NCBI GenBank assembly: GCA_020722095.1
Contig: DYLM01000001.1
Coordinates: 49,152 to 113,151 of the forward strand
Length of the DNA: 64,000 nucleotides
Direction: 5' to 3'
From: Chloroherpeton thalassium
GTDB taxonomy: Bacteria > Bacteroidota > Ignavibacteria > Kapaibacteriales > UBA2268
Below are positions 11,148 through 56,189 of the stretch, piece after piece. The first letter of the stretch is position 1. Every line of letters starts with the position of its first letter. A model generated the notes under the pieces. It was given only the letters and a program-made list of their open reading frames with translations. It was not told where the DNA came from and ran no database searches. The translations under genes and the position numbers were made by a program.

Positions 11148-11433
11148 GAGGCTGTCTCATAAGTAAGATTTTACAAAACAATTTCCATCAATCAAGATAT
11201 TGCTTGAGGGTATTACATAACATCGAAAAACCTTATCCTCATTATTAACCTTAGTAGAAATAATTCCCATTTTTACACACCAAACCTTATAACCTTATTA
11301 AATTATTAAAATTAGGAAATAAGGTTATTGGTTTAGTTTGGTTCATTTCTTTCTACTAAGGTTAATAATGAGGATAAGGTTTTAAAATGTTTTTTTTAAT
11401 AATTTGCAAAAAATCAACTTACGAGACAGCCTC
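11148..11433. mobile_element. MITE-like element copy 1 (286 bp). Terminal inverted repeats GAGGCTGTCTCATAAGT / ACTTACGAGACAGCCTC. Contains two inverted copies of a CTACTAAGGTTAATAATGAGGATAAGGTTT module.
   Basis: Termini seen directly in the sequence. Internal 32-bp inverted repeat at 11229-11262 versus 11354-11386. Shares the AAATAAGGTTATTGGTTTAGTTTGGTTCATT module with the copies at 16445-16500 and 53546-53600. Confidence 0.7.
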
Positions 11434-16178: not shown

Positions 16179-16187
16179 TTTTATATT

Positions 16188-16562
16188 GAAGCTGTCTCAT
16201 AAGTCAGCTTTGCAGTCATTCCAACGAAAGTGGGAATCCAATGTTTATTTGAAAATTTGAGAATGGTTTAACAATAGCCCACGAATTCATTCGTGGGTAA
16301 ATTTTAAAGTAAACCTTCGGAAGGTTAAAAAGAATTTTTTATGCGCAGAGCAAGCTCTTCCACTACAGATTTTACCTAACACCTAACGCCCAACACACCC
16401 AAAATCAATATACCTTATAACCTTATTTAACTGGTAAATTACGAAATAAGGTTATTGGTTTAATTTGGTTCATTTTTTTCTACTAAGGTTATTAGGTTCA
16501 ATAAGGTTTTAAAATGTTTTTATTTAATATTTTCCAAAAAGTCAACTTTTGATACAGCCTCC
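16188..16562. mobile_element. MITE-like element copy 2 (375 bp) with degenerate terminal inverted repeats (GAAGCTGTCTCATAAGTC / GTCAACTTTTGATACAGCCTCC)
   Basis: Internal GUCAUUCCAACGAAAGUGGGAAUCC GNRA hairpin; 20-bp palindrome CCCACGAATTCATTCGTGGG; AACCTTCGGAAGGTT palindrome; AAATAAGGTTATTGGTTTAATTTGGTTCATT module. Confidence 0.6.
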
Positions 16563-16590
16563 TAATGACAAAAAAGCAGAAATATGAAAA

Positions 16591-23492: not shown

Positions 23493-23536
23493 TAATAAGT
23501 ATTGGAACTTTGGTAAATATTCCCATTCTCGTAGGA

Positions 23537-23788
23537 GGTTGTCTCATAAGTCCCAGATATTTCAAAATTGTCATTCCCGTGAAAACGGTAATTTATATCC
23601 TCCCCCTTAATCCCCCTCAAAGAGGGGGAATACAAGGGGGAGGTTCTTATAAAAATATTCAAATTTGTAGTGAGGTTATATCATAAGTCAATTAAATGCA
23701 ACTTATAACATTAAGAATAAGGAATTACGGAGAATTCAAAAGAACTTAGTAGAGCATACATCCTTGTTTGCTAACTTATGAGACAACC
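23537..23788. mobile_element. MITE-like element, left copy of an inverted pair (252 bp; terminal inverted repeats GGTTGTCTCATAAGT / ACTTATGAGACAACC)
   Basis: Perfect 15-bp termini. Internal GUCAUUCCCGUGAAAACGG hairpin remnant and the nested GC hairpin CCTCCCCCTTAATCCCCCTCAAAGAGGGGGAATACAAGGGGGAGG (23599-23643). About 95% identical to the reverse complement of 24911-25160. Confidence 0.75.
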
Positions 23789-23827
23789 TGTTATTTAATT
23801 CTCATTATTTTAGCACAGATAAAGTTC

Positions 23828-24039: not shown

Positions 24040-24067
24040 AAAAAAAAATCCCCGCTTTCGTCGGGGA
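24040..24067 (-). terminator. rho-independent terminator of the cyclophilin gene
   Basis: GC stem TCCCCG/CGGGGA with a 7-nt loop, followed on the minus strand by a 9-U run. Lies about 130 bp downstream of the stop at 24200. Confidence 0.55.
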
Positions 24068-24199
24068 TTAATAATGTATGATTCAATAATAAAAAAACCT
24101 TCCTAATGGTTCAGGAAAAATTCAACACTATGCTTAAGCATAGGGTTGATGGGAGAAACTAAACTTTCGGAAGGTTGTAATATTTTTTTTAAATTAATT

Positions 24200-24814
24200 T
24201 TACTTTAATTTAACTATCTTCATTTCGATTTTTTCTAATGGATTATCGCGTGCATCTCGTGGTGAATTAACGATTTTATCAACAACTTCCATTCCTGAAT
24301 TAACTTGACCAAATATAGAATATTGTCCATCAAGCCATTTGGCATCAGCAACACAGATAAAGAATTGTGATGATGCCGAGTTTGGATCTTGGGAACGGGC
24401 TGCTGAGATAATTCCTCTTTTATGCTCTAATTTGCTAAATTCAGCAGGAACGCGCTTTTGGTCGGGTCTTCCCATTCCCCATTTGTCTTTGGGTTCTGAC
24501 TTGGAATTAGGATCGCCACCTTGAATCATAAAGTTAGGAATAACTCTATGGAATGCCGTACCATCATAAAACTTGATAGCAACTAAACTATCAAAATTTG
24601 CTACATGTTTTGGAGCAACATCGGGAAACAATTCAATTTGAATTTTTCCAAGTTCATTTGCACCTTGAGTACAAGTAATTTCATATTTTGGATTATTGGT
24701 CACTTTTTTAGCCTCATTTTTTTTAGGGTCGCTAAAGCCATTAGTTGTAATCATAATAAATATGGCAATAAACACTGCTACAATAGCAACTGGTGTGATA
24801 ATTTTTTTATTCAT
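24200..24814 (-). CDS. ppiB: membrane-anchored cyclophilin-type peptidyl-prolyl cis-trans isomerase
   Basis: 204 aa. N-terminal transmembrane/signal segment; FHRVIPNFMIQGGD cyclophilin signature. Confidence 0.85.
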   Translation of the reverse strand: MNKKIITPVAIVAVFIAIFIMITTNGFSDPKKNEAKKVTNNPKYEITCTQGANELGKIQIELFPDVAPKHVANFDSLVAIKFYDGTAFHRVIPNFMIQGGDPNSKSEPKDKWGMGRPDQKRVPAEFSKLEHKRGIISAARSQDPNSASSQFFICVADAKWLDGQYSIFGQVNSGMEVVDKIVNSPRDARDNPLEKIEMKIVKLK

Positions 24815-24910: not shown

Positions 24911-25160
24911 TTTGTCTCATAAGTTAGCAAACAAGGATGTATGCTCTACTAAGTTCTTTTGAATTCTCCGTAATTCCTTATTCTTAATGTTATAAGTTGC
25001 ATTTAATTGACTTATGATATAACCTCACTACAAATTTGAATATTTTTATAAGAACCTCCCCCTTTATATTTCCCTCTTTGAGGGGGATTAAGGGGGAGGA
25101 TATAAATTACCGTTTTCACAGGTATGACAATTTTGAAATATCTGGGACTTATGAGACAAC
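24911..25160. mobile_element. MITE-like element, right copy of the inverted pair (reverse complement of 23537-23788, ~95% identity)
   Basis: Direct comparison of the two copies finds only two short mismatch patches (GTCATACCTGTG vs GTCATTCCCGTG; AGAGGGAAATATAAAGGGGG vs AGAGGGGGAATACAAGGGGG). Confidence 0.75.
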
Positions 25161-25261
25161 CTCTTTTGTCTCAGAACTTTCCTAAGGTTTCAAACCTTCG
25201 GAAGGTTAAAATTCCTCCCAACGTCCAACACCTTCATAACATTATCAAATTATCTAATTTT

Positions 25262-37659: not shown

Positions 37660-38868
37660 ATGTCTGAAATCAAAAAAATTGGAATTATCACTTCTGGTGG
37701 TGATTGTGGTGGATTGAATGCTGTAATTATTGGAGCAGCACGAATGGCAAATCATCTGGGAATAGAAGCAACACTCATACCTAATGGTTATGCTGGTTTA
37801 TATAATTTGGATAAGTTAGATTTAGTAACTATTGATACGGTCCGTGCCGACAAAATTCATTCGGGTATTGCTGGCTCGGAAGCTGGACACTCCCGCGTAA
37901 AAATTAGCAAAATTAAGGATCCAAATAAATACGATAAAATTAAAGCAGGATTAAAGAAACACGGTATTGATGGATTAGTTATCGCTGGTGGAGATGATAC
38001 TGGTTCGGTTGTGGTTGATTTATCCAAACAAGGCATCAAGTGCGTTCACGTTCCCAAAACAATGGATTTAGACCTTCAAACTTATTCTGTGGGTGGCGAT
38101 TCCACAATTAATAGAATTTCCAAATTTACTGATGAATTAAGAACAACAGGCATTACACACAATCGTGCTTTAATAATTGAAGTATTTGGTAGATATGCTG
38201 GACATACTGCTTTTCGTGGTGGTTTAGGAGCAGATGCAGATGCAATTCTTATTCCTGAAGTTGAAGTAGATTACAAAGTACTTTACGAACATTTCAAAGA
38301 AAAATATATCGAAAGATTAGTTTCCAGCGATGTGAAAGGTGCTACTTATATTATTGTTGCTGCCGAAGGACTCAAGAATAAAGACGGACAATACTTTACT
38401 GATGATGCTGGACAAGATTCGTTTGGTCATCAGAAATTATCTGGTGTTGGAAAATTTATCCGTAGGCAATTAGAAGGCTATATGCAAAAGGATCCTATTT
38501 GGCAAGAAGTTCTGAAGAACGAAGGAATTTTTGTTGAAGGAATTTATGAATATCCAGAAATTCGCGAAGTATCTCTTGGGCATTTAGTTCGTGCAGGAGC
38601 AACAAGTTCTTATGATGTTACTTTTGGCAAGCAAACAGGCGGAGCAGGTGTATATTTGATGAATAATGGGATTTTTGGGGTTACTGTTGTGGGGGTTGAA
38701 TCATCGGAAATCACATATATTTCTACTGAAGAAGCAATCAAACAAAGATATGTAGATTTAGACGAAATCTCATTCCACGAAGCAATGGGAGTTTGTTTCG
38801 GTCGCGATCCAATAGAATATAATGTATCATTCAAGGAACATCAAGGCAAAATCCACAGGTATATGTAA
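37660..38868 (+). CDS. pfp: 6-phosphofructokinase, predicted pyrophosphate-dependent
   Basis: 402 aa. IAGGDDTG (Asp where ATP-PFKs have Gly, cf. GGDGS) and PKTMDLD (Lys as in PPi-PFK PKTIDND). Confidence 0.75.
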   Translation: MSEIKKIGIITSGGDCGGLNAVIIGAARMANHLGIEATLIPNGYAGLYNLDKLDLVTIDTVRADKIHSGIAGSEAGHSRVKISKIKDPNKYDKIKAGLKKHGIDGLVIAGGDDTGSVVVDLSKQGIKCVHVPKTMDLDLQTYSVGGDSTINRISKFTDELRTTGITHNRALIIEVFGRYAGHTAFRGGLGADADAILIPEVEVDYKVLYEHFKEKYIERLVSSDVKGATYIIVAAEGLKNKDGQYFTDDAGQDSFGHQKLSGVGKFIRRQLEGYMQKDPIWQEVLKNEGIFVEGIYEYPEIREVSLGHLVRAGATSSYDVTFGKQTGGAGVYLMNNGIFGVTVVGVESSEITYISTEEAIKQRYVDLDEISFHEAMGVCFGRDPIEYNVSFKEHQGKIHRYM

Positions 38869-39007
38869 TAAGTCGAAGTTTTTCTTGTAATACTAAAAAA
38901 ACAAGAATTTTTTATCAATCAACTTTTTTCTAATTTATTGTTAAGTGCTCTCCTGCCAAAAGTTGAATAAAAAAAGTGATATTGTTTACTTCAGTTATTC
39001 GAATAAG

Positions 39008-39136
39008 AGGCTGTCTCATAAGTCAGTTTTTCTGTCATTCCCACGAAAGTGGGAATCTATAAATCCGCTCTGGCAGTGGATCCCCGTTTGCACGGGAATG
39101 ACACTTGTGAAATATTTTGGACTTATGAGACAGCCT
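39008..39136. mobile_element. minimal MITE-like element (129 bp) with perfect 17-bp terminal inverted repeats AGGCTGTCTCATAAGTC
   Basis: Two internal GNRA hairpins in opposite orientation: GUCAUUCCCACGAAAGUGGGAAUC and GAUCCCCGUUUGCACGGGAAUGAC. Confidence 0.75.
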
Positions 39137-39331
39137 CTTAGTTTATTCAGGTAATTAAAAATAAGTTCGTCAGTAATATTTATCACTCAACACTCAACAC
39201 CCAAATAATGTTCAGATTAAACTATAAATTTTAATTTGAATTATTTGCTATATTTTCCAACAATTCAAAATAGGTTTAGAAATATTAGTTAATTTTGTAA
39301 ATTATTTGTATTCCAAATTGGAAAGAGAATT

Positions 39332-40531
39332 ATGTTAAAAAAAATTATTCCAGCTGACAGAACAGCTAATGTAACTTATGCAATTAGAGATATCATTGTA
39401 TTGGCTGACCAAGTGAAAAAAACCGGCAAGTCAATGTATTATTTAAATATTGGCGATCCAAATGTTTATGATTTTTCCACTCCACCCGAAATTATTGAGA
39501 CTATTCATCAAGCAATGCTTGACAATAAAAATGGTTATGCTTCCTCGATTGGAGAAACTTTTGCCACCGATGCTATCGCTCGCGATGCGTCTGCAAAAGG
39601 TATTCGCAATATTCAAACCATTTTCGTCACTTCGGGAGCAAGCGAAGCAATTGAAATTTGCTTGTCCGCACTTGTAAATGAGGGTGAAAATTTTCTGATG
39701 CCTACCCCAGGTTATCCACTTTATACTGCCATACAAAGCAAGTATGGAATGGAACCAAATCCATATTACTTATATGAAAGCAAGGGTTGGCAACCAGATA
39801 TCGAAGATATTAAATCCAAAATAAATAGCAAGACCAAAGCCATTGTATTGATAAATCCTAATAATCCAACAGGTTCAATAACCGATGCAGAAACATTGAA
39901 GCAAGTTATTGAATTAGCAGTAGAACATAATTTAGTAATTTTTGCAGATGAAATTTATGATAAATTACTATTGAATAATAGCAAATTAGTTTCAATTGCA
40001 TCGCTGAACGATCAAGTTCCTATGATAACTTTTTCTGGATTATCCAAGAATTTCTTGGCACCGGGTTTCCGTATTGGTTGGGGTGTGATGAGTGGTAATT
40101 TTGATTACTTGCAAGATTATTTAGAGGCAGTTCATAAATTACTACGAGCAAGAGTTTCGGCAAATCACCCATTGCAATATGCGATTCCTACAGCATTAGA
40201 CGGCAAAAAAGAACATTTGAAGGAAGTAATTGCAAAATTAGAAAGAAGAAGAAACATAGTAATGGACAAAATTGCAAATATTGATGGAATTAATCTTGTG
40301 CCACCGATGGGTGCTTTTTATGCGTTTCCATCGATTGATGTGGAAGATGACAACCATTTCTGTATGAATTTATTGCAAGAAACGGGAGTTGTAGTTGTAC
40401 CGGGGACTGGATTTGGTCAGAAACCAGGAAGCCATCATTTTAGAATAGTGATTTTGCCAACAGAAGATGTACTCGATAGTGCATTCAAGCTAATTGGCGA
40501 ATATTATTGTTATTATAAAACAAAATTCTAA
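39332..40531 (+). CDS. PLP-dependent aminotransferase, class I (alanine/aspartate aminotransferase-like)
   Basis: 399 aa. SGLSKNFLAPGFRIGW PLP-lysine region. Confidence 0.75.
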   Translation: MLKKIIPADRTANVTYAIRDIIVLADQVKKTGKSMYYLNIGDPNVYDFSTPPEIIETIHQAMLDNKNGYASSIGETFATDAIARDASAKGIRNIQTIFVTSGASEAIEICLSALVNEGENFLMPTPGYPLYTAIQSKYGMEPNPYYLYESKGWQPDIEDIKSKINSKTKAIVLINPNNPTGSITDAETLKQVIELAVEHNLVIFADEIYDKLLLNNSKLVSIASLNDQVPMITFSGLSKNFLAPGFRIGWGVMSGNFDYLQDYLEAVHKLLRARVSANHPLQYAIPTALDGKKEHLKEVIAKLERRRNIVMDKIANIDGINLVPPMGAFYAFPSIDVEDDNHFCMNLLQETGVVVVPGTGFGQKPGSHHFRIVILPTEDVLDSAFKLIGEYYCYYKTKF

Positions 40532-53451: not shown

Positions 53452-53763
53452 TTGTCATTCCCGTGCAAACGGGAATCCAGTGAAGCAAGATGAGGCTCTC
53501 TCATAAGCTAATTTTTTAAACATTTTAAAACCTTATTTAACCTACCAACCTTAGTAGAAAGCAATGAACCAAACCAAACCAATAACCTTATTTCCTAATT
53601 TTTTTAATTAAATATGTTAATAAGGTTTTGTGTGTAAAAATTGAAATTATTTCTACTAAGGTTAATAATGAAAATAAGGTTTTTCGATGTTATGTAATTC
53701 CCACAAACCATATCTTGATTGATGGAAATTGTTTTGTAAAAGCTGACTTATGAGACAGTCTCT
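53452..53763. mobile_element. MITE-like element copy (about 310 bp)
   Basis: GUCAUUCCCGUGCAAACGGGAAUCC GNRA hairpin at the left end. Termini GAGGCTCTCTCATAAG / GACTTATGAGACAGTCTC. Inverted internal CTACTAAGGTT...AATAAGGTTTT modules. Contains AAATAAGGTTATTGGTTTGGTTTGGTTCATTGC in reverse orientation. Confidence 0.65.
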
Positions 53764-53981: not shown

Positions 53982-56189
53982 TTATAACAAAGGAGCTAAT
54001 ATTAAAGATACGATAGACATAAGTTTAATTAAGATATTGATTGATGGACCTGAAGTATCTTTGAAAGGATCGCCTACTGTATCGCCAACAACTGCAGCTT
54101 TGTGAGGATCGGATTTTTTATAATATGTTTTACCATCAATAGTTATACCTGCCTCAATCATTTTCTTAGCATTATCCCAAGCGCCGCCAGCATTAGCTTG
54201 GAAAATAGCCATCAATACGCCAGATGCAGTAACCCCAGCAAGCATTCCACCCAAAGCTTCTTTGCCAAAGATAGGAATAAAACCAATGATTACTGGAGTA
54301 ATTACAGCTAATAAACCTGGAACAACCATTTCACGAATAGCGGATTTGGTTGAAATCTCAACACATTTTTCGTATTCAGCCTTTCCTTCAGCTTTATGGA
54401 ATTCAACTACATCTTCATTACTCCATTCTTCCATTTCCTTGCCATCATATTTCTTTATTAAATTTAAAGAATTTCGAAGTTCAGGAATAGAATTGAATTG
54501 GCGACGAACTTCTTCAATCATACTTTTAGCAGCACGACCAACAGCACTCATAGAAAGCGATGAGAAAACAAATGGAAGCAATGCACCAATGAATAAACCG
54601 GCCATTACATTAGCTTTTGAAATATCAATAGTAGGAATATGAGCTGCGGTCATATAAGCACCAAATAGAGCAAGAGCAGTTAAAGCAGCCGAAGCTATCG
54701 CAAAGCCTTTACCGATAGCAGCAGTAGAATTGCCAACAGCATCTAATTTATCAGTTCTTTCTCGCACTTCTTTTGGAAGTTCACTCATCTCAGCAATACC
54801 GCCAGCATTATCTGAAATAGGGCCATAAGCATCAACTGCAAGTTGAATACCAGTTGTTGCAAGCATACCTACTGCTGCAATAGCAATACCGTACAAACCA
54901 GCAAAGTGGAAAGCCCCGATAATAGCAAAAGCAATTAAGATAATTGGAATAGCAGTAGACATCATACCAATACTTAGACCTGCGATAATGTTTGTTGCAG
55001 GACCGGTAAGAGATTGTTCAACGATTTTGCGAACTGGAGATTTGCCGAAACCAGTATAATATTCAGTGATAATACCAATTAAAACTCCCGCAAGCAAACC
55101 AAATACTGTCGCCAAGAAAATTCCCCAAGAATAAACAGTATAAGTAGTTGAATATAATGGATCAGTGAATACAAATTGTTTTGGCAAAGCCCAATCAATG
55201 ATAAAGTAAGAAGCCACGAGCATTAAGAATGCAGCAATAAACGTACCGAAGTTCAATGCAGACTGGGGGTTGCCTCCTTCTTTTACTCTAACAAAGAATG
55301 TTCCAAAAATGGAGAAGATAATACCTGCACCAGCCAATAATAGAGGTAAAATAATAGCAGATAAACCACCAAAAGGAGTGGAAGTAAACTCAGGAATAGC
55401 TAAGAATGAAGCACCGAGAACCATAGTAGAGATAATTGAACCAACGTAAGATTCGAACAAATCTGCACCCATACCAGCAACATCACCGACATTGTCGCCA
55501 ACATTATCAGCAATAGTAGCAGGATTGAGTGGATGGTCTTCGGGAATGCCGGCTTCTACTTTACCAACCAAATCTGCACCAACATCAGCGGCTTTAGTGT
55601 AAATACCACCGCCAACACGAGCAAAAAGAGCGATAGAAGATGCACCAAAGGAAAATCCAGTTATAACAGTAATTACAGTATTAACAATATGAGGATCGTT
55701 AGGATTATTTAATAATCCGAACAAAGAAGCGTAAATCAAGAAAAGCAAGCCAATACCTAAAACACCAAGACCAACAACTCCCATACCCATAACGGAACCG
55801 CCGTTGAAAGCAACCATAAGAGCTTGATTAAGACTTGTGCGTGCAGCAGCTGTAGTACGAACATTTGCTTTGGTAGCAACTTTCATTCCGATAAAACCTG
55901 CCAACCCCGAGGCAATAGCACCAACAATAAAAGAGACACCTACCAAGTAGGAAGAATCAGTAGCAGTAGAGCCTTGTATCATCAGTAATATTGCAACAAC
56001 TACTACGAAGATTGCGATTACTTGATACTCTGCTTTAAGGAATGCCATTGCACCTTTGGAAATATAAGACGCAATATTTTTCATTTTGTCATTTCCTGGA
56101 TCTTGTTTGGAAATCCAAGCACTCCGTAAATATGTGAACAGCAATGCAATTAAACCAAGTACTGGAATAATTATCAAATAAGTAAACAT
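53982..56189 (-). CDS. hppA: membrane-bound H+/Na+-translocating pyrophosphatase
   Basis: 735 aa. [15 protein letters not shown] and DNVGDNVGD motifs. Confidence 0.9.

Follow-up and report, generated by a model that had tools for sequence, protein, structure and literature searches.

The element considered here lies in a 64,000-nt stretch of contig DYLM01000001.1 (assembly GCA_020722095.1), henceforth the window, between a phosphofructokinase (PFK) gene (pfk, 37660-38868) and an aminotransferase gene (39332-40531) that are both on the plus strand. A 129-bp feature in this intergenic region sits inside a slightly larger element, 39004-39140, located 137 nt past pfk and 193 nt ahead of the next same-strand gene. 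Contigs of the metagenome-assembled genome (MAG) GCA_975418485.1 and of JGI metagenome 3300000227 match the window at 99.9% identity, and the PFK protein of the window has its nearest named relatives in Kapabacteria, Ignavibacteriales and Bacteroidota. A first-pass annotation of the window had interpreted the feature as RNA structure under selection; our analysis indicates that it is most likely mobile-DNA debris and not a structured RNA. The same annotation had dismissed a 69-aa open reading frame (ORF) spanning the element, and rightly so: it is a product of the ORF scan, public contigs that match the window at 99.9% identity and encode the same PFK protein have no gene called at this position, and annotation of this artefact as a gene is unwarranted.

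Two hairpins in opposite orientation are enclosed by perfect terminal inverted repeats, an arrangement proposed in the first-pass annotation and confirmed here in the sequence (Table 1). The repeat had been measured at 17 bp; a perfect repeat indeed exists, but its true length is 21 bp. The hairpins exist as well, but in the strings typed out for them one G had been duplicated, and the second loop is GCAA, not CAAA. Hairpin 1 has a perfect 8-bp stem (GTCATTCCCAC-GAAA-GTGGGAATC), a DNA folding energy of -7.5 kcal/mol (z -4.5) and a score of 43.8 bits with covariance model R1. Folded as a single strand, the whole element forms a long stem closed by the termini, at -36.7 kcal/mol as DNA and -67.2 kcal/mol as RNA (z about -9.2 for both).

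Table 1. Components of the 39004-39140 element, sister elements and hairpin copies in the window. MITE, miniature inverted-repeat transposable element; NTS, Neisseria Transformation Sequence.
Feature	Coordinates	Strand	Remarks
Left terminal inverted repeat, TAAGAGGCTGTCTCATAAGTC	39004-39024	+	perfect 21-bp complement of 39120-39140; IS1182-family-type end
Left linker, AGTTTTTCT, 9 nt, end module B	39025-39033	+	first 48 bp of element resemble left end of 16188 element
Hairpin 1, Ssn-related motif (NTS type)	39034-39057	+	GTC + ATTCCCAC-GAAA-GTGGGAAT + C
Spacer between hairpins, 21 nt	39058-39078	none	folds into a small hairpin itself
Hairpin 2, Ssn-related motif, GTCATTCCCGT-GCAA-ACGGGGATC	39079-39102	-	one T·G in stem; R1 39.7 bits
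Right linker, 17 nt, end module A (CCAAAATATTTCACAAGT type)	39103-39119	-	
Right terminal inverted repeat	39120-39140	-	reverse complement of 39004-39024
69-aa ORF spanning element, not a gene	38945-39154	+	ORF scan only
Element by terminus matches	39007-39137		
Sister MITE without hairpin	11148-11433	+	same termini; 91% identical to 53492-53762 over 217 bp, opposite orientation
Sister MITE, 374 bp	16188-16561	+	one hairpin, 16215-16238
Sister MITE, 256 bp	23535-23790	+	one hairpin, 23570-23593
MITE, inverted copy of 23535 element	24912-25163	-	97% identical; decayed hairpin, 25106-25129
MITE without hairpin inside	53492-53762		
Hairpin copy	16215-16238	+	one A·G mismatch
Hairpin copy	23570-23593	+	one C·T mismatch; 3' flank T, not C; loop GAAA
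Hairpin copy, decayed	25106-25129	-	
Hairpin copy, perfect	53454-53477	+	just outside MITE 53492-53762; R1 45.8 bits

Matches to the terminus (GAGGCTGTCTCATAAGT) with up to three mismatches number 13 in the window against 0.02 expected, and they define six MITEs of 131-374 bp that are non-coding and have conserved ends and mosaic interiors. All six are intergenic, though ~88% of the window is coding. Over its first 48 bp, which span repeat, linker and hairpin, the 39004-39140 element shares 92% identity with the left end of the 16188 element (16186-16563). Its last ~55 bp reach 86-89% identity to the left ends of those at 23535 and 25163, and align with a locus of another MAG (L111) as well. 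The element is composed of an end module B, shared with the 16188 element, joined to an end module A, shared with those at 23535 and 25163. An Ignavibacteriaceae MAG (L035) has a 130-bp element of the same repeat-hairpin-spacer-hairpin-repeat layout, and L111 is built likewise.

Scanning one genome per species for the terminus yielded at least 116 loci, mostly in Saprospiraceae, Ignavibacteria, Chlorobi and Kapabacteria, with some in Chloroflexota; inverted termini are paired 30-430 bp apart around unrelated interiors in at least ~55 loci. Among the matches listed, the terminus stands ~80-160 bp upstream of a transposase gene in three loci (L085, L112 and L066), and the model NCBIfam NF033551 (IS1182 family) gives two of the three enzymes scores of 436 and 468 bits. 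Apart from these insertion-sequence copies, regular-expression and tblastn searches of the 116 terminus-picked genome loci listed detected no GIY-YIG gene and no IS1182 transposase. The sequence GAGGCTGTC(T/C)(C/G)A(A/T)AAG(T/G) is present at both ends of an NF033551-matching transposase gene in L085, L112, L240 (ISMsp1) and L241, and a 17-mer of the left terminal repeat of our element also ends the autonomous IS1182-family elements of these four loci. The same ends are found on ISMsp1 from the Microscilla plasmid pSD15 and on an annotated IS1182 element of Bernardetia. A literature search for the terminal-repeat sequence gave nothing relevant, and plasmid BLAST with the element gave no match.

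MITEs derived from IS1182-family elements have been described before, namely those related to ISMac2 in Methanosarcina (PMC3852290). The window elements share with ISMsp1-like elements the termini GAGGCTGTCTCA(T/A)AAGT, and with IS1182 MITEs a size of 130-380 bp, a lack of coding capacity and the presence of several copies with unrelated interiors. They differ in that their interiors are mosaics of small hairpin modules and not deletion derivatives of a transposase gene, in having no recognisable target-site duplication, and in having no autonomous partner within the window.

Two side observations concern these termini in other genomes. Autonomous IS1182 ends (L112 3899-3930; L240 384-420 and 2090-2124; L241 410-450 and 2165-2202) pair with a nearby partial copy, and the paired ends form A-tract / stem / T-tract hairpins resembling intrinsic terminators. 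In Bacteroidota, many of the terminus matches stand alone, measure 30-50 bp (AAAAAGAGGCTGTCTCATAAGTAGGCAGCCTCTTTTT) and have the look of bidirectional terminators.

The hairpins inside the element belong to a repeat type known from Neisseria. The NTS, CGTCATTCCCGCGMAVGCGGGAATCYRG, contains dRS3 (ATTCCC-N8-GGGAAT), and a degenerate Ssn-related motif (SRM) pattern has also been defined (PMC11893778, Nat Commun 2025). According to the same study, the 94-aa GIY-YIG protein SsnA binds and cuts the motif solely as single-stranded DNA, with cleavage governed by the three bases upstream of the palindrome and binding by the C that follows it; this single-strand activity was shown biochemically for the Neisseria and Wolbachia homologues, SsnA was reported to have no interaction with RNA carrying the motif, and ssn genes are flanked by such hairpins across phyla (PMC11893778).

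Six copies of the hairpin are present in the window, all of them intergenic, and ATTCCC-N8-GGGAAT has two matches there against 0.00 expected. The first-pass annotation had listed four sites of recurrence outside our element; the hairpin is found at all four, but the loop given as AAAA at 23570 reads GAAA. The six copies score 17-46 bits with the hairpin covariance model, and their reverse strands ~9-10 bits. Loops are GAAA or GCAA in every copy, GTC precedes all six, and C follows four of six; three of the four copies outside the 39004-39140 element have stem mismatches. The SRM pattern is fitted exactly by the hairpins at 53454-53477 (+) and 39079-39102 (-), and the four others deviate at 1-3 positions, hairpin 1 solely at one S position (the A in CCCACG). 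Separately from these six, a weak 20-bit match to the hairpin model (GTCATTTCC...GGAAATCCAAG, with an 11-nt loop) was noted at 56084-56119 (+); it falls within the 5' part of an ORF on the opposite strand (53982-56189, -) and could be a chance match or a decayed in-gene copy.

A metagenome scan with GTCATTCCC-N8-GGGAATC, in which the inner 8 nt were left free, returned at least 156 matches in at least 120 loci. Among the matches listed, 313 of 326 inner-pair cells are complementary (types GC/GC, GT/AC, AC/GT and GA/TC), the NTS-type 3' flank CAG accompanies 87 of 156 exact matches, and ~95-aa GIY-YIG ORFs (Pfam PF01541) lie between an outward-facing pair in five loci (L134, L170, L175, L195 and L217). 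Doublets face outward in at least 44 instances and inward in at least nine, with gaps mostly of ~17-35 nt; the gap in our element is 21 nt. In L128, the hairpin 12 nt before a GIY-YIG ORF is a 24-mer identical to 39034-39057, and an Ignavibacteriales MAG (L242) has a GIY-YIG gene bracketed in the same arrangement. An exact Neisseria-type NTS doublet is found in a Dehalococcoidia MAG (L089, 3398-3540) inside a MITE whose terminal repeat differs (CTAGGTTGTGTTG), so that hairpin doublets are embedded in more than one MITE family. A PDB search with an Ssn-like ORF gave spurious WD40 matches only.

The window hairpins share with NTS, SRM and dRS3 the core ATTCCC-N8-GGGAAT, the 5' GTC and 3' C(YRG) flanks and a G-M-A-V type loop; like these repeats they are multi-copy and intergenic, and form the outward pairs that elsewhere bracket a ~95-aa GIY-YIG gene. 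Unlike those repeats, they have inner stem pairs of G-T/A-C or A-C/G-T instead of G-C/G-C, reside in a MAG of the Fibrobacterota-Chlorobiota-Bacteroidota (FCB) group with 31% G+C whose nearest named relatives are Kapabacteria and Ignavibacteriales, and are built into IS1182-type MITE ends, with no ssn gene seen in the window. Neisseria itself offers a parallel for such composites: Correia elements are MITEs of ~100-150 bp with terminal inverted repeats, and the Neisseria intergenic mosaic elements (NIMEs) mix dRS3/NTS hairpins with short repeats. Our element is likewise an intergenic mosaic of NTS-type hairpins and other short repeats, but it belongs to a different phylum and its terminal repeats are unrelated to those of Correia elements; identity with a Correia element was rejected on the ground of these termini. 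Moreover, hairpin and MITE are separate repeat families in Neisseria, whereas in the window the hairpin is part of the MITE end modules.

A central question is whether the hairpin is maintained as DNA or as RNA. The first-pass annotation had argued for GNRA-tetraloop RNA structures under selection at the transcript level, acting as 3'-end stabilisers, terminator-like elements or a protein-binding RNA. The compensatory change on which it relied (CCCAC/GTGGG versus CCCGT/ACGGG) is real. Our set comprises 76 distinct copies (window, genomes and metagenomes) that were selected through the outer stem and had six or more of eight Watson-Crick pairs; 96.1% of stem cells pair, compared with 17-54% in slid controls, and changes on both sides occur in seven of the eight stem pairs, a result reached by 0 of 500 shuffles. 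The hairpin is under structural constraint. This genuine covariation favours an RNA role, as do the GNRA loops of all six window copies, the sense orientation of five of the six to the upstream gene, the very stable RNA fold of the whole element (about -67 kcal/mol, z -9.3) and the presence of the same hairpin in the Francisella small RNA FtrB. Stem covariation, however, is equally compatible with a hairpin in single-stranded DNA and with one in RNA, and DNA mini-hairpins, too, are unusually stable when they have loops of GNA or GNRA type.

Three tests across the family go against RNA, each with counts among the matches listed. First, the loops follow G-N-A-N (GAAA 85, GAAG 37, GCAG 34, GCAA 12, GGAA 10, GTAG 7 and others), and position 4 is not A, hence the loop is not GNRA, in ~1/3 of family copies; the earlier statement that loops stay within GNRA holds for the window and fails for the family. 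Second, G·U is normally tolerated in RNA helices, while the stem mismatches seen here comprise 25 G·T and 28 A·C, with no G·T excess. Third, 92 singleton copies are oriented at random with respect to adjacent ORFs, which were called crudely: 26 sense and 27 antisense downstream of genes, 24 and 29 upstream. The first-pass annotation had named stems without covariation, together with loops outside GNRA, as the outcome contrary to its proposal; the loops do leave GNRA, and the covariation is there. In addition, the motif is strongly asymmetric and the two copies in the 39004-39140 element face opposite ways, so that a single transcript carries one GNRA loop at most, and SsnA was reported without RNA interaction (PMC11893778). 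The suggested terminator-like role fares no better. No T-run follows the hairpin stems (flanks CCAG, CTAT and CCAC), which are therefore not intrinsic terminators, and a terminator scan at the element yielded one weak, off-register site (39091-39109).

Rfam at gathering thresholds has a tRNA as its sole match in the window. The consensus of FtrB (RF02748) contains the same hairpin, GuCauuCcCGCGuAGGCGgGaauC, and 39020-39117 aligns to the model via that hairpin alone, at 24.4 bits where the gathering threshold is 66, the rest of the model being unmatched; membership was rejected. Deletion of ftrB has no growth, stress or virulence phenotype, and the FtrB RNA may itself be a transcribed Ssn-motif repeat. 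At relaxed thresholds, a CRISPR-repeat match of 15.8 bits and matches to eukaryotic RNA families (microRNA and small nucleolar or Cajal body-specific RNA) were discarded as chance. Selection at the RNA level is not supported by these results, and we regard an RNA function for the element as improbable.

How the two repeat layers relate to each other can be read from their distributions. The hairpin model matches in 8 of 100 terminus-picked loci among the matches listed (Chloroflexota/Dehalococcoidia, one Ignavibacteriaceae MAG and a MAG labelled Chloroherpeton; none in Saprospiraceae or Bacteroidota), and in the at least 120 hairpin-picked loci the terminus is almost never near the hairpin. 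The two families are distributed independently. Where they co-occur they are physically joined, the hairpin lying 9-18 nt inside the terminus in the window lineage and within ~30-100 nt of it in Dehalococcoidia. The simplest reading is that hairpin doublets were captured into MITE end modules, which then recombine.

These distributions also bear on the idea of a plain MITE whose subterminal hairpins are binding sites for the transposase or a host factor, unrelated to Ssn nucleases. Hairpins do lie 9-18 nt inside the termini in four window MITEs (E2, E3, E4 and E5) and in L035, L056, L094 and L111, and repeat, linker and hairpin are inherited jointly as modules. Yet autonomous IS1182 copies with the same termini are devoid of the hairpin, two of the six window MITEs lack it, the hairpin at 53454 stands outside the neighbouring MITE, and the two families occur independently of each other. 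This explanation is about as improbable as RNA function. A functional coupling between IS1182-type MITE ends and Ssn sites, with the MITEs as vehicles that spread Ssn sites or with Ssn nicking driving excision or recombination, is a speculative addition that we consider unlikely, albeit slightly less so than either alternative. Its basis is the spacing in Ignavibacteriota/Chlorobiota-like MAGs and in Chloroflexota/Dehalococcoidia, at least two lineages that are distant from each other: Ssn-target hairpins there are set inward from IS1182-type MITE ends by a short, constant distance. If true, it would tie a DDE transposon end to a GIY-YIG single-strand nuclease site and would address how NTS-type repeats multiply, a matter raised and not settled in the Ssn paper (PMC11893778).

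Based on these results, we favour the view, with a probability of roughly 0.7, that 39004-39140 is a chimeric piece of non-coding mobile DNA: an IS1182-type MITE carrying an Ssn-hairpin doublet that acts as single-stranded DNA. The shell would be a MITE bounded by 21-bp terminal repeats of the kind that ends IS1182-family (ISMsp1-like) insertion sequences; its movement would depend on recognition of both ends by an IS1182 DDE transposase encoded elsewhere. The interior would consist of two subterminal end modules, each with one Ssn-related hairpin of the Neisseria NTS/dRS3 type (GTCATTCCC-N8-GGGAATC). These hairpins face outward, like those that bracket ssn genes elsewhere, which makes the core a gene-less hairpin doublet. 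In single-stranded DNA the palindrome would fold, the asymmetric flanks (GTC upstream, C downstream) would set polarity, and a small GIY-YIG Ssn nuclease would bind and nick just upstream, by analogy with the Neisseria and Wolbachia homologues. The stem covariation would then reflect the need for a DNA hairpin, and if the pfk transcript is influenced by having so strongly structured a 3' region, this would be incidental. Tool results underpin the identification of both layers; that an IS1182 transposase mobilises the element in trans and that an Ssn nuclease recognises it in this organism are steps that we infer, since the window holds no transposase or ssn gene. The earlier view that the hairpin is not simply a DNA-level transposon end survives insofar as the hairpin itself is not the terminal repeat, but the element as a whole is DNA-level mobile DNA.

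Several observations weigh against this reading. Regular-expression and tblastn searches of the 64-kb window detected neither an IS1182 transposase nor a GIY-YIG gene. No consistent target-site duplication flanks the six elements, with a 2-bp TA possible at two of them; in published IS1182-family examples the duplication is 4 bp or none. An empty site was not found: all three public contigs with identical PFK carry the element, and in relatives whose PFK is 83-86% identical, synteny is lost downstream of pfk, where the neighbours differ. Half of the window hairpins (three of six) have stem mismatches, so these copies may be decaying and not in use. Finally, the uniformly GNRA loops and the five sense-oriented hairpins of the window would also fit an RNA role, and FtrB, which harbours a hairpin of the same type, is a detected RNA.

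An element of chimeric mobile origin could have been exapted as an insulator or terminator, its 21-bp terminal stem or a cruciform being kept to separate pfk and aminotransferase transcription. Its position between the two genes and its very stable fold are in keeping with this, and the short Bacteroidota versions of the termini resemble A-tract / stem / T-tract bidirectional terminators. However, the right terminus is followed by CTTAGTTTATTC, without a T-run, the terminal stem is not called by the terminator scan, and sister copies are found between convergent, between divergent and between tandem genes; we judge such a role quite improbable, more so than an RNA function or a plain MITE. Repetitive extragenic palindromic (REP) sequences typically have a GTAG-type 5' tetranucleotide, whereas the 5' flank conserved here is GTC. 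A REP doublet (REPIN) mobilised by a REP-associated tyrosine transposase (RAYT, IS200/IS605-like Y1) is the weakest candidate and highly improbable: two inverted hairpins with a short spacer have the REPIN layout, the doublet is similarly a gene-less derivative of a unit whose hairpins flank an enzyme gene, and the authors of PMC11893778 drew the analogy themselves, but the motif is unrelated, the genes bracketed by it encode GIY-YIG nucleases in seven loci, and no Y1 transposase was seen in at least 120 loci (Y1 was not specifically searched for in the window).

Both components of the favoured IS1182-type MITE with its Ssn-hairpin doublet are of known kinds, and their combination is a modest extension. 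It would extend the Ssn/NTS hairpin system to an Ignavibacteria/Kapabacteria-like bioreactor organism, where hairpins within IS1182-type MITE end modules would form "intergenic mosaic elements" like those of Neisseria, although the phylum is a very different one. The case also carries a caution: compensatory stems and GNRA-looking loops in a repeated intergenic hairpin are not proof of RNA, as repeats that form hairpins in single-stranded DNA mimic this signal. The two kinds of repeat can be separated by the loop spectrum of the family, the balance of G·T and A·C mismatches, and the orientation to neighbouring genes.

Some minor features of the sister elements and their surroundings remain to be recorded. 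The MITEs at 11148-11433, 16188-16561 and 53492-53762 have in common a long, internally palindromic module (ACCTTATAACCTTATT ... AATAAGGTTATTGG). A G/C-run hairpin module (CCCCCTCAAAGAGGGGG; 23596-23640) of the 23535 and 24912 elements resembles modules in same-terminus MITEs of Saprospiraceae (L080 and L005). A 20-nt mini-hairpin, AAACCTTCGGAAGGTTAAAA, which is a further small repeat module, is present at 16311-16330 inside the 16188 element and again at 25192-25211, outside any element. The two 252-bp MITE copies at 23535-23786 and 24912-25163, inverted and 97% identical, bracket a cyclophilin (peptidyl-prolyl isomerase) gene (24200-24814, -) in a layout like that of a composite transposon. 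Downstream of this gene lies an ordinary intrinsic terminator, an example of the form that genuine terminators take in this genome, at 24046-24068 (-), in which AATCCCCGACGAAAGCGGGGATT is followed by a T-run.

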